NCBI GenBank assembly: GCA_000004985.1 | Contig: GG738997.1 | Strand: one strand, 5' to 3' | DNA from: Naegleria gruberi | Taxonomy: Eukaryota | DNA: 13,269 nucleotides | Part shown: positions 1 to 13,269 of the stretch, piece after piece | How the letters are laid out: each line of letters starts with the position of its first letter | Numbering within the stretch: position 1 is the first letter of the stretch | Position numbers and translations under genes: made by a program | The notes under the pieces: model-generated | What the model was told of the DNA's origin: nothing | The model's database searches: none | Seen by the model: only the letters and a program-made list of their open reading frames with translations

Positions 1-575
1 TCTTTTTCAATATTAAGTGATATCAACTGTTTCATTTCACTTATGAATTTGGCTCCTTCTACACCAATTCGATTGTAAGAAATATCAAGTGATTTTAATT
101 GTTTCACTTCACTTATGAATTTGACTCCTTCTATACCAATTCGATTGCCACAAATATTAAGTGATGTTAATTGTCTCATTTCACTTATGAATTTGACTCC
201 TTCAACATCAACTTGAGTGTAAGAAATATCAAGTGATGTTAATTGTTTCATTTCACTTATATATTTGGCTCCTTCATCAATTTCATTTTTACCAATATTG
301 AGTGATATCAACTGTTTCATTTCACTTAGATATTTGGCTCCTTCATCACCAATTAGATTGGCAGAAATATCAAGTGACGTTAATTGTTTCATTTCACTTA
401 GATATTTGGCTCCTTCATCACCAATTTGATTGGCAGAAATATCAAGTGACGTTAATTGTTTCATTTCACTTATGAATTTGGCTTCTTCATCACCAATTCC
501 ATTGCCAGAAATATTAAGTGATATCAATTGTTTCATTTCACTAATGAATTTGGCTTCTTCAAAAGAATCAAGCAA
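1..575 (-). repeat. 72-bp (24-codon) tandem coding repeat array, about 8 units, within the LRR gene. Adjacent units are near-identical at nucleotide level.
   Basis: The segment cacttatgaatttg recurs at period 72 (for example 38 and 110). Units near 291-362 and 363-434 differ by only a few bases. Confidence 0.85.

Positions 576-3126: not shown

Positions 3127-3164
<38 letters not shown>
3127..3164. repeat. (AT)19 microsatellite in the spacer between the 2395..3116 ORFs and the 3' end of the minus-strand gene
   Basis: Direct reading of the sequence. Confidence 0.95.
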
Positions 3165-3178: not shown

Positions 3179-4176
3179 TCAATTTGTTCCAGTTAATTTT
3201 AAATCCATAGCTCTAAGAACCTCGTTAAAACCATTTGTCTTTTTCTTGTTGTTAAAGTTTTTCCTTGCTTTGATGAAGGATCTGTTAAACTCCAAAACAG
3301 TATCATCTAAAAACAATTTTTCCTCTTTGTTCACATCTAATTCAACTAAAGTATCCTTCAGCTTGTATTGTTTTCTAGTAATTGTTACATCTTGTACCTT
3401 GAAAATATCATTGTTCAATTCGTCAATAATCAATTTCAATTCATTTCTACAGGCAATAACTTCTGATGAATTGACAGATAATCCATCATAACCATGAATG
3501 CATTTTCCCTTGTAAACTTCATTCAATTCTAACGTCTTGTTTAGCATTACAAATTTCTTATTTTTGTAATCTAAAATCTTATCTTCAGTATAATTTTTGG
3601 AATTCGCAGCCATAACCCCAAATGCAATTTCTCCAATTTCTTCGGAGAACATAGTAAAATTTTCCGTAAAAAAGTCATGAAACGTTTTGGACTTCTTCTT
3701 CCAAAATTCAAATAACAAAGATTGGAATATTTCTGCATTCCTATACAAGTTATGTTTTCCCAAAATAAATAGGTATGTTAATACATCTCTAGATAATGAA
3801 AATTCATTCCAATTTCCAACTCTCAATGCATAATAATAACTTCTAAGGGCTGGTAAAATTGTCTCAAAAAGAATTGTAAAGTTTTTGGCAGCTATCGTAG
3901 TAGTTCTAACATAACAATCATCAGGTAGAGTGTAGTAAGCAAGAGAAACAACATTAATTATATCAGTTAGTTGTTGTAAACCCATTGATTTTTCAAGATA
4001 GCTGGTCACATTGGGATAAGCAGCTTTCAATAAGCGCAATAAATAGTTTTTTCCAAATAGTCTCCAAGTTACAATTGATCCCATTTTATAAACGTGCCAG
4101 AAACCGTTTACACAGATAAATCTTTGTGAATAGTGTTTAAAATTAGTATAATTATGAGACAGTTGAATAATCTTTA

Positions 4177-4216
<40 letters not shown>

Positions 4217-5124
4217 AAAAAAAAACTTACCTTGTAAACTCTTTGAAAAATGTTTACATCAACCTTAAGCATTATCATTTTGTCTTTTGGATACTTTGAA
4301 TCTAGCATCATCAGAACTTGTAAAAGACCTTCGTTTGAATTTATCACATAGGGATCTAGACTTACAGTACGATACTTTGACATTGAAGTGTAGTCATTTA
4401 CGTGTCCATCTGGGTTTCTAATTGGATTATTAAAAAAACCGTCTTTTGAGGGATGTGACTGAAAAGCCCAACAACTATAAACATTCTCATCATCAAAAGG
4501 GTCAATACTTGTTATTGTGTTAAAAACAGATTCATAACAGAATCCGTCGTCCATATTAAATATTACATTATCAAATACTGTGAACTTTTGTAATACAAGT
4601 TTTTGTTTTTTAAATGTGAAACCAGTTGCTGTATAATGTTGATTTGTAAAAACAGCTCGTACAACCTTCATCCTTTTATAGGAAAATATTAAATCAAAGT
4701 TATCTACATGAAACACAACAAGTATATCATCATCTTCAATAATAATTTTAGTTTTTTCCTTTTCTACTCCATAAACTCTATCAAAGTGTCTGTAGAATGT
4801 TGTTTTAAATAATCTATTTTGTGTAAAACTTTTGATAATTCATTACTTACCCCATATCACAAGAGCTTAATAAATACTCGGCAAAACTGTTTGAACAGTT
4901 ATTACGAATAAACATGGCATGAAGAAATCTTTGTTTGTTGTTGTTTCTTTTATGATACTTTAAAAGTGTTAAAACATGAATATGAAACTTCTGCTTATAA
5001 TTCCACAATTCTTCTGAAGTAATATCATTATTGAAAATTAGTAAATTTTCTCTAGAAAATTAACAATTAGACTGGTAAATGTGTGAACAACATACCGTTC
5101 CTTAATAACAAATGATTCAAACAT
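3179..5124 (-). CDS. Four-exon gene on the minus strand encoding a 601-aa protein of unknown function. CDS join(5124..5096, 5051..4851, 4813..4231, 4171..3179), with introns 5095..5052 (44 nt), 4850..4814 (37 nt) and 4230..4172 (59 nt, containing (TA)16).
   Basis: The ATG at 5124..5122 is followed by a gtatgt donor. The phases at all three junctions are consistent: CG|A gives R, GG|A gives G, and a phase-0 join gives K|I. The total CDS is 1806 nt, which is 602 codons. In-frame stops in the introns force splicing. Polypeptide begins MFESFVIKERENLLIFNNDITSEELWNYKQKF and ends KLTGTN. I recognise no conserved domain. Confidence 0.7.
4181..4212. repeat. (TA)16 microsatellite inside intron 3 of the minus-strand gene
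   Basis: Direct reading. Confidence 0.95.
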
Positions 5125-5151: not shown

Positions 5152-5186
<35 letters not shown>

Positions 5187-5347: not shown

Positions 5348-5823
5348 ATGCCAAAATCACCTTCAGCAAAAACAAACAAACCAACAAGCCCAAATCTTAC
5401 AAAACCACAACCTCCATTCAAGAGACAAGCAATTCCGTTGCCGGAAAACATTGAACTTTTAAGTTGGAAGAGAGGAATTAATTCAAACAATTATATTTCT
5501 AACGGTGATAATTTTTGGTCTTTCCGTTTTGAAGATGGTTTGTTAACATTAACAAACTATCCGATGAGAACTGATGATGACGACCATCAAGTGGTTGATA
5601 TTTCCGGTGGCAGTAAAGTCGTAGGTAAATTGATGACTGTTGCCCATGTTGCTACTGATCCTAAAAGTGTCAATCAGGTTATTGGAGTAACTGTATTGAC
5701 AAATAGTGGTGTTAAAAACTTGGTTTTGCGCTTTGGTGATCTTCTAACAAGTGAGTTTACAAAGGAGAGCGGATTTGACCGCTCCCACTGTAAGAGGGTT
5801 GATATTTTTGTAAGTAAGTATCG

Positions 5824-5858
<35 letters not shown>

Positions 5859-6494
5859 ATATATCTAGAACATTGGAATAGTTATTTAACAGAACAAATG
5901 CAAAATGAGGGTGATGACGAAGCATCTAAAGATAAGACAACCCCAAGCAGGGATAAAAAGTCAAATCCATCAATTTTTGATGATGAAGATGAGAATGAGG
6001 ATGATGGTGTTAGTAAACAACTCAACTTTACTCAAGAGGACGTTCAAGATTTTAATTCCTCTAAAGAAACACCATCAGTTTCGAAGCTTAAGATCAAGAA
6101 AAGTAAGTACTAACTTGTTTATGTTTGTGTTAACAATTTGCAGAACCAAGAGCTTCTCTTACTTCCTCTTCTTCCTACGTTGTAAAAGGTTCAATGTCAA
6201 CCTCTAAAATTGCCTCCATCATTGTACCTAAAACAGACACACCTACCAACAAGAAAGATTTAGAGCTTGGTAGGACTGGAGAAATAATCAAACAATTTGG
6301 TTTTCCTGCTAGTGTCTCCATTAAGGTAACAAGAATTAAAGTTCCAGAGTCATCCATAGCTGTTCGTGAAATCAGTTTAGAGCATGTAAAATCAATTGTT
6401 GATGAGATTAGAGGTGGTGGAAAAGCGTTGAGCTCCGAAGTTGGTTTGGTTGAGATGAAAGTCGCTCCAAACAGTTCTGCTTCAGGTATGTAGT

Positions 6495-6537
<43 letters not shown>

Positions 6538-6975
6538 CAGTGACTATCAAAAATCTTGTACAAAAGTTGAAAAGAGAGAATAGGGACGAAGATGCAATAA
6601 TGGAAGAATTGCAAGAATTAATTGAGAACGATGAAGAAAACATCGAACTGTTTGTGCATGGTAGTACTCATTATACCCTTGCATTAACAGCTGCTTTTCA
6701 ACAATTACCTCAGATTGAAAGGACATCTGAAAACACACCTAGACATGACTATGTAAGTTTATTAATAATTTCTTTTCTTATTGTATTAGTATGTTGTATT
6801 CAATATCCCAGATCATGAGTTATTGCAATTAGCAACAATGCACAATACAAACGTCAAACAATTAGCTATGGATTTCCCTTCAATACTTATTAACGTGAGA
6901 AGAACCTTAAAATTCTTTCTAACGAAATATCCTAACTCTGTAATGTACGTTAACTCAGATGGAATAGAAGGTAAG

Positions 6976-7006
<31 letters not shown>

Positions 7007-7710
7007 TTTTTCACAAATAATTTTTTCAGAGAGGAGACTTATTAGATTTGTGGAAGGAGGAGCAAAGCTTTTTAAAAGCGAAATAATTAAGGTATTTGGT
7101 CTCAATGAAAACTCAGCAATACACTATCAGACTCTATCATTTTGGTCTCATAGATGTTGGGATAGGCTTGTTGAAATTGCTAAAACTAAAAAGAAGAATA
7201 GTAATACTCCTTTACTTAAAAGTTTAGCTACTTTTATTACAAAGGTTGGTAGTTGCAAAGGTATTCCTGAAGAAGAGATATATTATTCGCTTGAGCAATT
7301 CTTGAATTTTGGTAACATTCAAAGTATGGTTAATCATATCAATCATACCAAGTGTGTATTATTTGGATTTAGCGAAATTACAAAGTATTTTTCTGAAATA
7401 CCTGATTTAAAAGGAATGGCAAAGAGACTTCCAAACATTTACAAAGCATTAGTTAGTGATTCAATGCACGACTCAGAATTGAAACAAGTAGAAGAAAAAA
7501 CATTGTCATTCACTTCCACCGACTTGTACTTAAATATTAGAAGAGAGTTAAGTGGAAACCCTAAAACTTCTTCGACTACAGATGTATCATTTCCAGTTGT
7601 GACAGAACAGTTGAAAGTAGAACGAAATGGTTATTCGGCAATATTATTATATGGAGATGTTTTGGAGTTAGCAAACATCTTTCCAAAGAAAGTATCGTAT
7701 GGTAAGTTTT

Positions 7711-7748
<38 letters not shown>

Positions 7749-8635
7749 CAAATGTAGATTTAATGATTTGCGATTTGCCATATGGTGTTTTTAAAGATTC
7801 CCCTTATGATGTCTTATTTACTGATGACCAATTGAAAGAGTTTATTGACAATTTATACCAAATCACTCCAGACACGAATTTTCCAACTTGGATCTTCTTT
7901 GGGGAGTATAAGCAAATTGTAAAGCTTCAAGAATTAATTGAACTAAAGAAAGGCAATGCAGTTATATGTATTTGGGTGAAAAATGGTCGTCAATTTGGTG
8001 CAAACTTTGGTACGTATAAGTATGAAAGCTTCCTTCTTTGCTTCCCCAACAAGCAAGTGAATATCAAGCCACAGGGTTTCAGTTTATCACCATTCAGTAT
8101 TTGCTTTCCATCAGAGACTAACTTTTTGAAAGACTCCAACTCAAGAGAGTGTAACAAGGGTCAGAAGCCTCTTTCTTTAATTTCGTGGCTTGTTTATCAA
8201 TTTTCCAACGTTGACGGTATTGTTCTTGATTTATGTTCGGGAACTGCCACCACAGCAGTAGCTGCAGTTAGTTATGGTAGAAATTCGATCAGTTTAGAAA
8301 GTAATCATGGCCAATTCGAACACGCTGCAGAACGACTCAAATTATCAGAATTTGAGAAGGTAAATTTTGAACCCTTAGTTGTTTGTACAGTATCTGAAGA
8401 CAAGGAAAAAAAGGAAAAAAAGAAATCTACAAAAAGAAAAACAGCACCCACCAAGAAAACACCGAAAAAAGCAAGCAAAAAGAAAAAAACTGAAACACCT
8501 TTAAAGGGAAGTAAAATGCAATCGAAAAAGGCAGAGGAAATTGCGATGAAATACATAGACAGCGAAGCAGTAGAAATGGCATCTGATGAAGAGAATGTCA
8601 GCGAAAAAGATGAGGAAGAAGATGATGAAGAATAG
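5348..8635 (+). CDS. Seven-exon gene encoding a ~994-aa protein. Its C-terminal third is a beta-class (motif IV then motif I) N6-adenine/N4-cytosine-type DNA amino-methyltransferase domain (N6_N4_Mtase fold), followed by a Lys-rich basic tail and an acidic tail. CDS join(5348..5813, 5869..6102, 6144..6485, 6541..6752, 6790..6970, 7030..7701, 7758..8635).
   Basis: Every junction is GT-AG and phase-consistent, and the exons sum to 2985 nt (995 codons). The first intron's acceptor is ambiguous (5868 or 5892), and both options stay in frame. The 37-nt intron 6753..6789 is forced, because an in-frame TAG sits immediately before the exon-5 start. MTase motifs: LLYGDVLELANIFPKKVSY|D|LMICDLPYG (compare GDxLExLxxLPxxSVDLIxTDPPY), GQKPLSLISWLVYQFSNVDGIVLDLCSGTATTAVAAVSYGRNSISLE (compare TQKPxxLxxRLIxxxSxxGDxVLDPFxGSGTTxxAAxxLGRxxIGIE), and HGQFEHAAERLK. 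Tail: KEKKEKKKSTKRKTAPTKKTPKKASKKKKTETPLKGSKMQSKK ... SDEENVSEKDEEEDDEE-stop. Confidence 0.85.
5827..5854. repeat. (AT)14 in intron 1 of the methyltransferase gene
   Basis: Direct reading. Confidence 0.95.
6498..6529. repeat. (AT)16 in intron 3 of the methyltransferase gene
   Basis: Direct reading. Confidence 0.95.
6981..7006. repeat. (AT)13 in intron 5 of the methyltransferase gene
   Basis: Direct reading. Confidence 0.95.
7714..7745. repeat. (AT)16 in intron 6 of the methyltransferase gene. This intron interrupts the MTase catalytic domain.
   Basis: Direct reading. Confidence 0.95.

Positions 8636-8678: not shown

Positions 8679-8708
<30 letters not shown>
8679..8708. repeat. (AT)15 microsatellite downstream of the methyltransferase gene
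   Basis: Direct reading. Confidence 0.95.
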
Positions 8709-9120: not shown

Positions 9121-9378
9121 ACAATTTCACTTCTGCTTTCATTCGAATTTCCGAATTTTCCTGTTTTTCCGTTAAGTCGGACACAGCTCATTGATTGAAA
9201 CAGAATTGCAATTTCTTGAGAGAATGATGACCTTTCAACTCGGAGTTTTCTCGTTTACCCGCAACGATAAAATCCTTAAAAAAATTTTTACGCAAAAAAA
9301 AACGTTTTTAACCTTTCTGTGCGATTTCTGCGTTCATCAAAAAGACACCACAAAAAACACAAGAAGGGACAAAAAACT

Positions 9379-11920
9379 ATGAAGCCTTTAGCTGTGATGG
9401 TGAAAGTGGAGCCTGGGCAACAACAACAATCGCCATCCACTCCATCCACACCAACCAATTCCTCCTCCACCAATAATACCACAAATAATTCTCATATTGC
9501 TTCTAGTGGTCACCATCATCATGTGGGTAATAATCATAATCATCAGCACAATAATTTAATCATGATGAATCCGAGTTCATCAATTTACCCTTCCTGTTTG
9601 CCTCTTGCTATGAAGAGCAATTCTTCCTCTTTTATTCCTTCCCAGACACCTCCACCTCCACATCAACAAGGATTCAGTCTTCCTTCCATTCATAATTTGA
9701 CTTCACAACAACCATCTTCAAAAGTCATGGTGGATCACATTCATCACTATCAACAACAACATCCACAATCGTGGCGTGGTAATAATATGGAACCAAAACC
9801 ACCTCTTCATAGTAATGGTGGTCATGATTTGATGGAAGCCTTGTCAGCACAACCACAAACTATTGTAAGATATGCACCTCCTCTTTATCAAGCCATTATT
9901 CAACCAAGTATTGATATTGTTCCTATGGATAGTTTTATTCCTGGCTATATATCTGGATACAGAAAGACTCCACAGCAAGTAACAATTGGGACAAGTCCTG
10001 AAATGCAACCATCATCTAATCCTTCCTCTTCCACAACAACTGGAATTATTGTCACAAACAGTCCTACCATGACACCAGTTAAGGTTTCTCACTGTATTGC
10101 TGACCAAGAGTTGGTAAAGACAACACAATCAGTAATAGTGGCCTCCTCATCCGCCCAACAAGCCCCTTCATCCAATAACACCCAAACCCAACAACCACCC
10201 ACAGATCCAAGTCAAGCCAGAATGGCATGTATAAATTGTAGAAAATCACATCGTAAATGGTAAGTATTTTCAATGTATTAGGCAGGTTGTTATTGACTCT
10301 AATTTAGTGGTAAGTATTTGTAGAGATTACAGTAAAATTTACAGACCCCATTTTAAAGATAAGGGAATGCCTTGTGGTGAATGTAAAAAGAGAGGAATAC
10401 CTGATGAATGTGTTTATTATGAACCTAAGAAGAGAGGACCAAAGATGAAGACAGCTGAAGAGGAAGCTCAAAGTAAGGAGGAAGCAAAGAAAAGAAAGGT
10501 CTCTAAGAAGAATGAGGTTCCCTCTGCAACAGTAGTAGATTTGGAAAGGACCAATCTATTGCAGTCTAACTCTCAGATAATTGCCTCCAGCAGCTCCAAT
10601 GCAGCAACTACCACACCAGTAATCCCAGCCCTCTTCTCTAGAAAGGAAATTGATAGAAGAAATTACATTTTACACATGATCTTCCCTGAAGCAAACCTCC
10701 CTAATGATATTAAGGAAAACTGTCCAGATGATAGCTTTAACGAAATGTTTCGTCTCTTTTTATCAGATGAATTCGTTAGCTTTTTGGTTGAGTGTATGGA
10801 TGGTAATAAGAGTAAGAATCAATTGATGCCTTTCATTAGAGAAAAGGTTCTCCTCTCTATTCTCAATAGAATTATGGAACCATACTACCACGGCATGTAT
10901 TTTTCCCTAGAGTCTCTCTTTTTGAAATACTATTGTCTATTCAAGCTCTCCCCACATGATGATAATAGACCAATCTTATTGTTAGAAAGTGAGAAGAGTG
11001 TAAAGCAAAATAAGAAGGATTTCAATATTATCACCAATGACATACAGACTATAATTTGTAATCTGTGGAGTTCCTTCTTTAATACCATCCTCGAATTCAA
11101 GAGTGTGAATTCATCCTACAATCAACTCGTCATTAAGAATATGCTTGATCTAATTGTGAACAAGTTATCAGAGAATGTTGATATTCAAAGTGTATTGGAG
11201 TTACAACATGCTCTATTTACCAGATACTTGTTGCTCATTGAAATCCATCAACAGATTGAGGGATGTACAACCAATAGTGTACAGTTCAAGAAATTGGTGT
11301 TCAACTTTCTCAAGCTTACTTACCTCTCTGGAATCACTACGAAATCAGCAAAACTTGTCGATCAATTTGAAAAGTTTAACACGAAATTCTTTGCCATTCT
11401 CACTAGTCAGTACAGCTCCATGTCACTGAATACCAACTATGTTATGGCAGAAATGGAATGCTTTATTCCAAGAAACTTGACAGAATGTTTGACCTTCTTG
11501 AGCGTTATCACATCAGAAGGGGAGCAAGATTTGGAAGTTCTCTTCTTGGAGTACATGTCCAAGTTGTTGAACTTGAGTATTTACATGCAAGGTATTCTCA
11601 ACACTAACGATAAGAATCTTCAAGAAATGAATGCAAGCGTTGGGAAAGATTTCTTCCACATAGCCAAGAACCTCAAATCTCCAATTATTCTTTCAATCCT
11701 CAATTCCCTGCAGAATTATCTCATTACCTCCTTTTTTGAAAATACTATATCTATTCCAGAGTCTCCACAATTGGAAAATCAATTTAAGGAACGTATTTTA
11801 ACTAGTGCCAGTCAATTTGAACATCAAGATCATTTCTACTTGAGAGCAAGTAATTCTCTAATTCGAGGAAAAGATTTGTCAGAGATGCGGAAAGAGTCAA
11901 AGAAAGTATTTATAAAATAA
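9379..11920 (+). CDS. Zn(II)2Cys6 (fungal-type binuclear zinc cluster) transcription factor, about 822 aa, two exons. CDS join(9379..10259, 10333..11920). A low-complexity Q/H/N/S/P-rich N-terminal region of about 280 aa precedes the zinc cluster. A basic linker and a large C-terminal region follow it.
   Basis: The ATG at 9379 sits in an A-rich context (aaaaaact ATG). Exon 1 ends ...ACINCRKSHRK + tg. The intron has a gtaagt donor and a ttacag acceptor at 10331-10332. The splice restores TGT (Cys), giving ACINCRKSHRK-C-KIYRPHFKDKGMP-CGEC-KKRGIPDE-C, which is CX2CX6CX13CX2CX8C. The two exons sum to 2469 nt (823 codons). The spacing is within the known Zn2Cys6 range. The C-terminal domain was not matched to a named family. 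Confidence 0.75.
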
Positions 11921-11930
11921 TCTTGTAATA

Positions 11931-13269
11931 TTATTTACCATAGTATGGGATTGTGTTCTTCTTTCTGGAGAACCAAACATTTCTCTTACCAGTCTTGCCC
12001 AAGTATGCAGTGATTGCTTCAACTGAAACTTCGCTTCCTCTAAAGATTTTTGGTGTGGATGATTTGAAAAAGAGTCCTGAAATTCCTGAGCTATCTTCTA
12101 AAACAACAACCTTATCATAGTATGCATTCAAAATGTAACGAATGGGCACAGCATCGTCTGCTGTCAATTCAGTAATAATGTGATCAATCATAAAGGAGAG
12201 TGTTCTCAAACCACCAGCAAAGACATCATCTGACTTTTTAGAAATATCAACCTTTAGCAAATTGATATGAATATCTGCCGAGAAGTAGTCCTCATCGAGT
12301 GAGATGGTTTCAACAGATCCTGGAGTCTTACTTTCAGTTTCCTCATCTGCAGTAACAACATTTGTAAGATCAGCATTGTACTTGGTTGAGTATTGAATAT
12401 ATTTTCTGGCATCTCTGAAAACAGCCAAGTTTTTAACTGAAACCAATTTGTCAACATCATTTAGAGATGCAGAACTCTTAATCACTTCCACCATTTTTGG
12501 TTGAATTTCATACGAGATAACTTTACAACCCAACAGTGCAGGATAAATTGAATAAAATCCCAAATGAGAACCAACATCAACAATGAGACACTTCTTTCCA
12601 GTTATTTTTGAATCTCTTTGGAATTTCTCAATTAACATTTTGAATAGTTCTTCAGTTGCTGATTCCCAATTGCCATATCTAACCATGTGCTTTGAAAATC
12701 CAGTATCTCTAGCAGGATTCAACACTCTCATATAAAAGGATGGATTGGTATTTGTTTTTACAATATACCCAACAAGTCTATTATCATCTCTAACCAATGG
12801 AATCAAACCCTTTGGTTTGTTAGATTGTACAGCAATTAAAATCATAAATATCAATCCAATAACTGCCAATACAGAAATAATCAAATTCCTTGAAGGCAAC
12901 TTGTCCAAAAATGTTAAATATTTCGCTTTAATTCCACACATTCTCAATAAATTTCTAAATATTCTCGGAATGAAAGAAAAGATACTTCCAAGCCTTCTCA
13001 TCCAAACACCAGAAAAAGCCTTCACCGATTTTTCTCCCAAAATATTACTTTCATGATTTAATATTAATGGGAGTTGTTGATTTAAAGTACTACCACCACC
13101 ACCACTAGTAGCCATCTCCTCATCCTTTGATGGTGGCGATCGGGAAATTATATTAGATGAAACTGTTGTTGTTGTATTGGATCGGTTAAAGTTAGTCATG
13201 ATTGGTGCGAGTTCATCATCATCGGAATTATTTATTCTGATCAAAGATGACGACAATGAAGAATCATTA
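11931..13269 (-). CDS. FkbM-family (Methyltransf_21) SAM-dependent methyltransferase with a predicted N-terminal transmembrane anchor (LIISVLAVIGLIFMILIAV). It is 5'-partial: the reading frame stays open to the right edge of the window and the reported TTG start is not the true start.
   Basis: Motifs: KKCLIVDVGSHLGFYSIYPALLGCKVISYEIQPKMVEVI (compare vfDvGAniG..slyfa..ga.rviafEP of FkbM), and INLLKVDISKKSDDVFAGGLRTL (compare idllKiDvEGaE). Single exon over 441+ codons. Stop codon TAA at 11933..11931. Confidence 0.8.
   Translation of the reverse strand, partial: NDSSLSSSLIRINNSDDDELAPIMTNFNRSNTTTTVSSNIISRSPPSKDEEMATSGGGGSTLNQQLPLILNHESNILGEKSVKAFSGVWMRRLGSIFSFIPRIFRNLLRMCGIKAKYLTFLDKLPSRNLIISVLAVIGLIFMILIAVQSNKPKGLIPLVRDDNRLVGYIVKTNTNPSFYMRVLNPARDTGFSKHMVRYGNWESATEELFKMLIEKFQRDSKITGKKCLIVDVGSHLGFYSIYPALLGCKVISYEIQPKMVEVIKSSASLNDVDKLVSVKNLAVFRDARKYIQYSTKYNADLTNVVTADEETESKTPGSVETISLDEDYFSADIHINLLKVDISKKSDDVFAGGLRTLSFMIDHIITELTADDAVPIRYILNAYYDKVVVLEDSSGISGLFFKSSTPKIFRGSEVSVEAITAYLGKTGKRNVWFSRKKNTIPYYGK

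Follow-up and report, generated by a model that had tools for sequence, protein, structure and literature searches.

Intron gain after transfer is the usual fate of horizontally acquired genes in eukaryotes, and AT-rich protist genomes such as that of Plasmodium falciparum carry dense (TA)n repeats confined to the introns and intergenic DNA of a compact genome. The permuted N6-adenine methyltransferases (MTases) of 'Clade 3' have been described only from Naegleria; they show an unusual strand-4 motif, and their proposed source is the MTases that bacterial mobile elements carry (Iyer, Zhang and Aravind 2016, PMC4738411). Dinucleotide repeats within introns have been studied in zebrafish, where (AC)m-(GT)n introns are bridged by pairing of the repeats and spliced without U2AF2 (Lin et al. 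2016, PMC4691745). Our subject is intron 6 of NAEGRDRAFT_76461, a Naegleria gruberi gene on a small scaffold that was analyzed whole (13,269 bp; the window). This intron cuts an MTase domain of the bacterial/phage type and has an (AT)16 array as its core. The explanation that we consider quite probable is that it is a spliceosomal intron acquired by a resident MTase gene after transfer and later colonized by a microsatellite.

The intron begins with GTAAGTTTTAAA, that is, the donor hexamer GTAAGT and the 6 nucleotides (nt) TTTAAA, continues with (AT)16, and closes with TTTCAAATGTAG. The initial annotation had rendered it as gtaagt plus (TA)16 plus a tail; its borders and the 16 copies (Tandem Repeats Finder) stand, and its formula lacks TTTAAA. 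GTAAGT opens seven of the nine introns inferred on the scaffold. The spacing from array to acceptor AG is 12 nt, with TTCAAAT as the candidate within which the branch point may lie; pyrimidine content is alike in array-bearing and array-free introns, and their polypyrimidine tracts do not clearly differ. Exon 6 ends in ...GDVLELANIFPKKVSY plus one carried G (position 7701), and exon 7 starts with AT-TTA-ATG-ATT-TGC-GAT-TTG-CCA-TAT-GG, giving D-LMICDLPYG. The spliced junction reads ...VSY-D-LMICDLPYG in phase 1, downstream of an open frame at 7050-7701, so that the carried G and the exact phase proposed initially agree with the sequence. Excising 7702-7757 reproduces the public model XP_002668621.1 exactly; the public annotation already removes the same segment. 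With a consensus-like GT donor and AG acceptor (GTAAGT...TGTAG), the segment reads as a genuine U2-type (GT-AG) spliceosomal intron, and its removal from the mRNA is probable. Read through, the retained intron yields ...VSYGKF-stop, ending ahead of the catalytic motif as had been foreseen; because translation would stop three codons into the intron, splicing of intron 6 would be required for the enzyme.

The encoded protein is XP_002668621.1 / EFC35877.1 / D2W4X4, 'predicted protein NAEGRDRAFT_76461'. We searched 1.84 billion representative proteins exhaustively with HMMER, using the spliced product of exons 6 and 7 as the query; all 432 query residues matched this 994-residue N. gruberi protein with 100% identity and without a break. 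When the public protein is mapped onto the window, all six introns are GT-AG; all six excisions are needed, and jointly they give an unbroken open reading frame (ORF) of 994 codons in 30%-GC DNA. Phase 1 is shared by five of the six introns (P about 0.011, assuming a phase-1 frequency of 0.3), which makes exons 2, 3, and 6 symmetric 1-1 exons. In intron 2, a perfect yeast-type branch-point consensus, TACTAAC, abuts the GTAAGT donor, about 30 nt from the acceptor.

The C-terminal part of the protein matches PF01555 (N6_N4_Mtase) with 38.6 bits for the product of exons 6 and 7 and 36.9 bits for the full protein (gathering cut-off, 26.7 bits). The match covers protein residues 703-893 and profile positions 2-220 of 221. 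It starts exactly at the Asp of the split codon, and Pfam alone therefore cannot show continuity across the junction. Other comparisons do cross it. CcrM, found by sequence search of the PDB, aligns straight through, with LLYGDVLELANIFPKKVSYDLMICDLPYG on the Naegleria side, and eight phage-type homologs and an intron-less eukaryote-like relative (L003) are likewise continuous. In a 16-sequence alignment centered on the junction, the split codon is the conserved Asp of an S-V/I-D-L-v strand; exon 6 carries GDxLE and exon 7 carries D(L/P)PY, with the local reading S-Y-D|L-M-I-C-DLPY. An AlphaFold2 model of the spliced domain has a mean pLDDT of 87.2 and a pTM of 0.87. In this model, the part encoded by exon 6 forms a beta-hairpin and the GDVLELANI helix, residue 39 is the Asp, and strand LMICD (residues 40-44) follows it directly and runs into DLPY. 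Foldseek matched the model to 104 PDB chains at E <= 0.001, with CcrM best (E = 2e-14, TMq 0.72) and M1.HpyAVI, MboIIA, M.BceJIV, RsrI, and the bdelloid rotifer N4CMT among the further matches. From alignment and model, the last ~290 residues are identified as an N6-adenine/N4-cytosine DNA MTase domain of the bacterial/phage type and of the beta class, in which motif IV precedes motif I; intron 6 cuts this domain in the conserved Asp codon at the start of the strand leading to motif IV. The initial claims that the intron splits the MTase fold and that conserved bacterial sequence continues across the junction are borne out by these alignments and by the single confident fold; its placement between an SVDLI-like strand and motif IV has to be moved to the Asp codon where that strand starts.

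The catalytic motifs of the domain are variants. The second residue of motif IV is Leu and not the Pro of the consensus (D/N/S)-P-P-(Y/F/W). Because DLPY is also found in intact phage-type relatives (P0008, P0013, P0038, and P0071), as well as in the eukaryote-like P0002, P0004, and P0010, it would be a recurring variant and not a sign of decay. Motif I reads D-L-C-S-G-T-A-T-T: the first Gly of F-x-G-x-G is kept, and the second is Ala, as it also is in the relative L001; most relatives carry CSGTGTT. Since motif I comes after motif IV, the order is the permuted one of the beta class. GNHTR-like motifs in P0010 and P0022 had hinted that a ParB-like domain precedes the MTase; this idea was unsupported, with no Pfam ParBc hit at E <= 1 and no match in the PDB sequence search.

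Several observations point to a prokaryotic or phage source of the MTase domain. The exhaustive protein search gave 1122 matches at E <= 0.001, the majority of them metagenome proteins, and the PF01555 family is overwhelmingly prokaryotic or phage in distribution. Short full-length homologs that are uninterrupted at the junction occur in phage or prophage contexts: the P0013 locus is a block of tightly packed same-strand ORFs including two tandem MTases, and the neighbors of P0157 are a phage integrase, an M15 peptidase, and a DUF1353 protein. Given such a source, intron 6 would therefore have been gained after transfer, following entry into eukaryotes, as was initially proposed; the intron-less homologs that span the site and lie in phage or prophage settings fit this order of events.

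The nearest relatives are not bacterial. They are P0002 (37% identity) and P0004 (35%), both on metagenome contigs and both with eukaryote-style Lys-rich tails; additional relatives come from annotated Chara and Ginkgo entries and from multicopy marine contigs. The N. gruberi gene seems to belong to its own eukaryote-like family, comprising P0002, P0004, L003-L013, and the Chara and Ginkgo entries. Among these, the contig of P0004 (L001; from an uncultured low-GC eukaryote; 24-35% identical) is 1.9 kb long with 21% GC and carries, in order, a 287-codon ORF, a 65-nt segment GTGAGT...TTAAG, and the MTase ORF, both ORFs being intact. When spliced, it reads ...RKKL-G-LLVIDLPYG. Its split codon is G|GT, aligned with G|AT of Naegleria and likewise in phase 1, and in both genes the shared codon lies four residues ahead of DLPYG. 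The array in the L001 intron is only (TA)5. On the P0002 contig, the ORFs are arranged in a way that would accommodate this intron too (a 287-residue ORF, a 38-nt gap, and an MTase ORF starting from VIADLPYG). The more distant eukaryote-like L003 and L004 (24-26% identity) are continuous at the site of intron 6, with DVLALRDVAKLKDEYDLILLDPPYG, and are interrupted elsewhere by their own conserved in-frame stop at ...YRI*F..LAQ....

The comparison of homologs that had been suggested for dating the gain can thus be made: the nearest relatives being other eukaryote-like sequences, both the transfer and the gain would predate N. gruberi. With the same codon and phase in L001 and continuity in L003/L004, intron 6 probably arose in the ancestor of the Naegleria/P0002/P0004 subgroup, inside a family resident in eukaryotes and long before present-day N. 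gruberi. Because a relative that is only 24-35% identical shares the position and the phase of the intron, long residence in eukaryotes is supported and contamination is ruled out; together with the five further introns and the eukaryotic neighbors of the gene, this makes a stronger case than the initial annotation had argued.

In the protein databases searched, other Naegleria proteomes contained no ortholog, a word-indexed homolog search omitting the Lys-rich tail returned only the query protein (that is, no close ortholog or paralog), and a scan of viral contigs for subfamily motifs gave no relatives. Among the marine metagenome relatives there are near-identical groups (L003/L004, L005-L007, and L009-L013) with their own conserved interruptions, and in L009-L013 homology begins abruptly at residue 183; the multicopy pattern of L003-L013 would fit a gene family that is repeated or mobile in marine eukaryotes. 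Upstream of the MTase, at window positions 7030-7360 (protein residues ~480-590), lies a module of 110 residues (...SFWSxRCW...SCKG.xEEEIY...). This SFWSxRCW module is also present upstream of the MTase in L001. Willaertia magna keeps the module alone (45% identity; L002, positions 10170-10499), in gene ABK040_005796, which has no MTase domain, so it is an uncharacterized eukaryotic module that is separable from the MTase. An intron of the W. magna gene (43 nt, phase 1, array-free) maps to within one codon of Naegleria intron 5. At the other end of the protein, a short acidic motif, YIDSEA (8552-8569; protein residues 968-973), follows the Lys-rich tail and is kept in the otherwise divergent tail of P0002 (...SQYIDSEAADSST); it may be a short linear motif.

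The array of intron 6 is one of eight on the scaffold. Counting alternating AT over the whole window gave eight (AT)13-19 arrays, five in introns of 55-59 nt and three in intergenic DNA, all between 3.1 and 8.7 kb; (AT)n is the sole microsatellite type in the window, and arrays occur at a density of one per 1.7 kb. Under a first-order Markov model of this DNA, 2e-11 runs of >= 26 nt are expected, and runs in 300 simulations reached at most 13 nt; a pure (AT)n run of 32 nt cannot arise by chance. The eight arrays are confined to the AT-richest 5.6 kb, with none at 0-3.1 kb or 8.7-13.3 kb. Nine introns on the scaffold are well supported, and four of them have no array (37, 37, 41, and 55 nt). 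The intronic arrays (26-34 nt) and the intergenic ones (28-38 nt) are of the same size, which argues against splicing as the determinant of array length. In the 22-kb Willaertia locus, no alternating-AT run exceeds 8 nt. Since the homologous L001 intron has (TA)5 and the Willaertia intron has no array, the arrays would have been added later to existing AT-rich introns. The (TA)16 core accordingly looks like a later addition that says nothing about how intron 6 arose, and it is probably neutral. Aligning the five array-bearing introns with each other revealed no shared sequence beyond (AT)n and generic splice signals, no terminal inverted repeats, and no target-site duplications. Literature searches found no publication on (AT)n tracts or intron statistics in Naegleria.

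Taken together, the proposed history would start with the entry of a bacterial/phage-type MTase gene into a eukaryotic lineage, followed by the gain of intron 6 well before present-day N. gruberi. (TA)n would then have expanded within this short AT-rich intron in the N. gruberi lineage, and a like expansion would have affected four other introns and three intergenic spacers of the scaffold. Several points weigh against this history. L001 is the only relative whose DNA shows the shared intron, and it could represent a paralogous lineage and not a distant species. The nearest relatives are eukaryote-like, and the splicing of intron 6 rests on the gene model and on comparative evidence. Three features of the arrays also fit poorly with a neutral microsatellite. 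The lengths of alternating-AT runs are bimodal: six runs measure 6-7 nt and eight measure 26-38 nt, and the range of 8-25 nt is empty. The nonrepeat part of the array-bearing introns, at 23-33 nt, is shorter than every array-free intron (37-55 nt). Finally, arrays are overrepresented in introns relative to other noncoding DNA (P about 0.006, with a rough map of the coding sequence). The uniform size of the arrays and their preference for introns remain a curiosity that the history outlined above does not explain.

These same features are what an explanation by RNA structure would account for. A (UA)16 hairpin would bring the 5' splice site together with the branch point and 3' splice site, letting an intron with ~24 nt of nonrepeat sequence be recognized and spliced, and selection would hold the array at ~30 nt. 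The hairpin is predicted with a minimum free energy of -14.2 kcal/mol (z = -3.7) and 4 nt unpaired at each end, so that complementary-repeat pairing across intron 6 is predicted from a single self-complementary array; comparable predictions were obtained for four other introns, and bridging has a precedent in the (AC)m-(GT)n introns of zebrafish (PMC4691745). However, the intergenic arrays match the intronic ones in size, the homologous L001 and Willaertia introns do without an array, as do four introns of the same scaffold, dinucleotide-preserving shuffles of intron 1 fold as well as the original, and stems of A-U pairs alone are weak. We therefore regard bridging by structure as unlikely. 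It is similarly doubtful that N. gruberi has a class of minimal 'hairpin-core' introns, in which a ~30-nt (UA)n stem replaces nearly all internal sequence, so that 23-33 nt of nonrepeat RNA are left, and bridges the splice sites. Such introns would be a single-array counterpart, in a deep-branching protist, of the bridged zebrafish introns; the narrow range of array lengths (26-38 nt) would then be kept by selection or by a strongly biased equilibrium of slippage and deletion. The uniformity at ~30 nt might instead be technical, with longer (AT)n palindromes trimmed during plasmid or fosmid cloning and the real intron possibly longer. Long perfect AT palindromes are unstable in Escherichia coli clones, and all eight arrays measure 26-38 nt with none intermediate, but their lengths differ and several have one imperfect end (ATAAAT..., ...TTTGTATATAT), as arrays formed in vivo look. 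We give trimming little weight, and it would leave the intron call and its phase unaffected.

Two further explanations concern the intron itself. If the segment were not removed, the gene would be a decaying pseudogene or an overpredicted model whose MTase halves are never joined; the missing close ortholog in other Naegleria species and the noncanonical motifs IV and I (DLPY and CSGTATT) would suit such a gene. Against this stand the six GT-AG excisions that jointly open a 994-codon frame in 30%-GC DNA, the conserved position and phase in L001 with its intact ORFs, the recurrence of DLPY in intact phage-type homologs, and the confident modeling of the spliced domain as a complete fold, and we hold the pseudogene view to be very improbable. 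Least probable of all is that the (TA)n introns 1, 3, 5, and 6 are recent insertions of a mobile introner or an element resembling a miniature inverted-repeat transposable element (MITE). Such an origin would explain why four of the six introns of the gene and one in a neighbor share a core and a nearly equal length (55-59 nt), and the phase-1 excess (five of six, P about 0.011) would suit it, but the introns have only (AT)n and splice signals in common, with neither terminal inverted repeats nor target-site duplications; intergenic DNA, where there are no splice sites, has identical arrays; and distant relatives that lack the array share the position of intron 6 and, to within one codon, that of intron 5. 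The alignment, which found no shared element sequence, led us to reject an introner/MITE origin of the array-bearing introns. A post-transfer intron with a later microsatellite thus remains our preferred account.

Table 1. Coordinates of the MTase gene, its introns and motifs, and the (AT)n arrays in the window
Feature	Position	Strand	Details
NAEGRDRAFT_76461, whole gene	5348..8635	+	7 exons, 994 aa; public protein mapped exactly onto window
Intron 1	5814..5868	+	55 nt, phase 1, (AT)14
Intron 2	6103..6143	+	41 nt, phase 1, without array
Intron 3	6486..6540	+	55 nt, phase 1, (AT)16
Intron 4	6753..6789	+	37 nt, phase 0, without array
Intron 5	6971..7029	+	59 nt, phase 1, (TA)13
Exon 6	7030..7701	+	SFWSHRCW module, N-terminal beta-hairpin, and GDVLELANI helix of the MTase fold; ends with G7701
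SFWSHRCW module	7137-7160	+	In exon 6
GDVLELANI helix	7653-7679	+	In exon 6
Intron 6	7702..7757	+	56 nt, GT-AG, phase 1, 91% A+T
5' splice site GTAAGT of intron 6	7702..7707	+	Read from sequence
Perfect (AT)16 microsatellite of intron 6	7714..7745	+	Tandem Repeats Finder: 16.0 copies, 100% matches
3' segment TTTCAAATGTAG of intron 6	7746..7757	+	Ends in acceptor AG, the first AG downstream of the array
Exon 7, stop codon included	7758..8635	+	Remainder of MTase domain and Lys/Glu-rich tail
Motif IV, variant D-L-P-Y	7772..7783	+	Junction alignment
Conserved motif N-x-G-Q-K-P-L	8153..8173	+	Sequence comparison
Motif I (S-adenosylmethionine-binding loop), variant VLDLCSGTATT	8222..8254	+	Sequence comparison
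Intron of neighboring unannotated gene	4172..4230	-	59 nt, phase 0, (AT)17; GTAAGT...TTTTAAAG
Pure AT run, 38 nt	3127-3164		(AT)19; intergenic, between two convergent 3' ends
Pure AT run, 34 nt	4180-4213		(AT)17; in 59-nt intron of minus-strand orphan gene
Pure AT run, 28 nt	5155-5182		(AT)14; divergent promoter region, ~165 nt upstream of MTase ATG
Pure AT run, 28 nt	5827-5854		MTase intron 1
Pure AT run, 32 nt	6498-6529		MTase intron 3
Pure AT run, 26 nt	6981-7006		MTase intron 5
Pure AT run, 32 nt	7714-7745		MTase intron 6
Pure AT run, 30 nt	8679-8708		(AT)15; 43 nt past MTase stop codon

The genes that flank the MTase gene are ordinary eukaryotic ones. At the 5' end of the scaffold (9-562, minus strand), a 72-bp tandem repeat of 7.7 copies encodes 24-residue RNI-type leucine-rich repeats (LRR_6, E = 1.5e-31), and the gene runs off the scaffold end. 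Next to the MTase gene, a minus-strand orphan gene (3179-~5060; three exons, ~477 residues or more) is absent from the public N. gruberi protein set and had no homolog in 5.8 billion clusters; its array-bearing intron (4230 to 4172) joins at least 200 open codons on either side, and its second intron (4850 to 4814, 37 nt) is array-free. HEPN_MAE_28990 proteins have been reported in operons with ParB and methylase genes (PMC3710099), and this neighbor was considered as a cotransferred partner of that family. The candidate was rejected on a Pfam score of 16.5-17.6 bits against a cut-off of 26.8 and the lack of a PADLOC match; the absence of homologs and of an Rx4-6H motif by eye also speaks against it. 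Downstream, a plus-strand gene at 9319-11920 encodes ~850 residues with a low-complexity Q/S/P/H-rich N terminus and no Pfam match; it contains a Zn2Cys6-like pattern, CINCRKSHRKC...CGECKKRGIPDEC, split by an array-free intron at 10260 with its acceptor at 10314 or 10332. The last gene (11931-13256, minus strand) is an intron-less ORF of 441 residues with a subthreshold match to TRM5/TYW2 methyltransferases (17.3 bits against a cut-off of 28).

If our reading is right, the locus documents a known process, in which an MTase gene of the phage/bacterial type became resident and gained introns. Because the intron splits a codon for a conserved residue of the core, the order of transfer first and intron second is unambiguous. 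The position shared with a 24-35%-identical relative would mean that the family has long been evolving inside eukaryotes, and contamination is excluded for a small orphan scaffold. The bearing on intron gain in intron-poor protists, and on possible N6-methyladenine or N4-methylcytosine systems in Naegleria, is modest. Should near-uniform (AT)13-19 tracts occur genome-wide, they could inform minimal intron architecture or microsatellite dynamics in Naegleria.

With the beta-class MTases of PF01555 (CcrM, M1.HpyAVI, M.MboIIA, M.RsrI, and M.BceJIV), the N. gruberi domain shares the order of motif IV before motif I, the N-terminal GDxLE...S-V-D-L-v, N-x-x-Q-K-P, and the fold. Unlike them, it belongs to a eukaryotic gene with six spliceosomal introns, ~700 non-MTase residues, and a Lys/Glu-rich tail, has DLPY instead of DPPY and CSGTATT instead of FxGSGTT, and is ~20% identical to the solved enzymes. 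N4CMT of the bdelloid rotifer Adineta vaga (PDB 8s9m) likewise has a PF01555-type fold encoded by a eukaryotic nuclear gene (Foldseek E = 6e-10), whereas its identity is 14%, its host lineage and accessory domains are others, and its cytosine-N4 specificity is not indicated for the N. gruberi protein. The arrays of the scaffold resemble those of P. falciparum in being dense and in lying in introns and intergenic DNA; in contrast, their lengths are strikingly narrow and bimodal, and (AT)n is the sole microsatellite type. As in the teleost (AC)m-(GT)n introns, a dinucleotide repeat within the intron would, by prediction, fold into a stem and bring the splice sites side by side. The N. gruberi introns differ in having a single self-complementary (UA)n and not two complementary arrays at opposite ends, in being short (55-59 nt) and not long, in their predicted A-U-only stem, and in the arrays that also lie outside introns. 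'Clade 3' (PMC4738411) agrees with our gene in its Naegleria host, the order of motif IV before motif I, an unusual strand-4 motif, and a proposed origin in bacterial mobile elements; the gene fits the description and may belong to 'Clade 3'. If they are the same clade, the relatives in uncultured eukaryotes would extend it beyond Naegleria, contradicting its description as found only in Naegleria.

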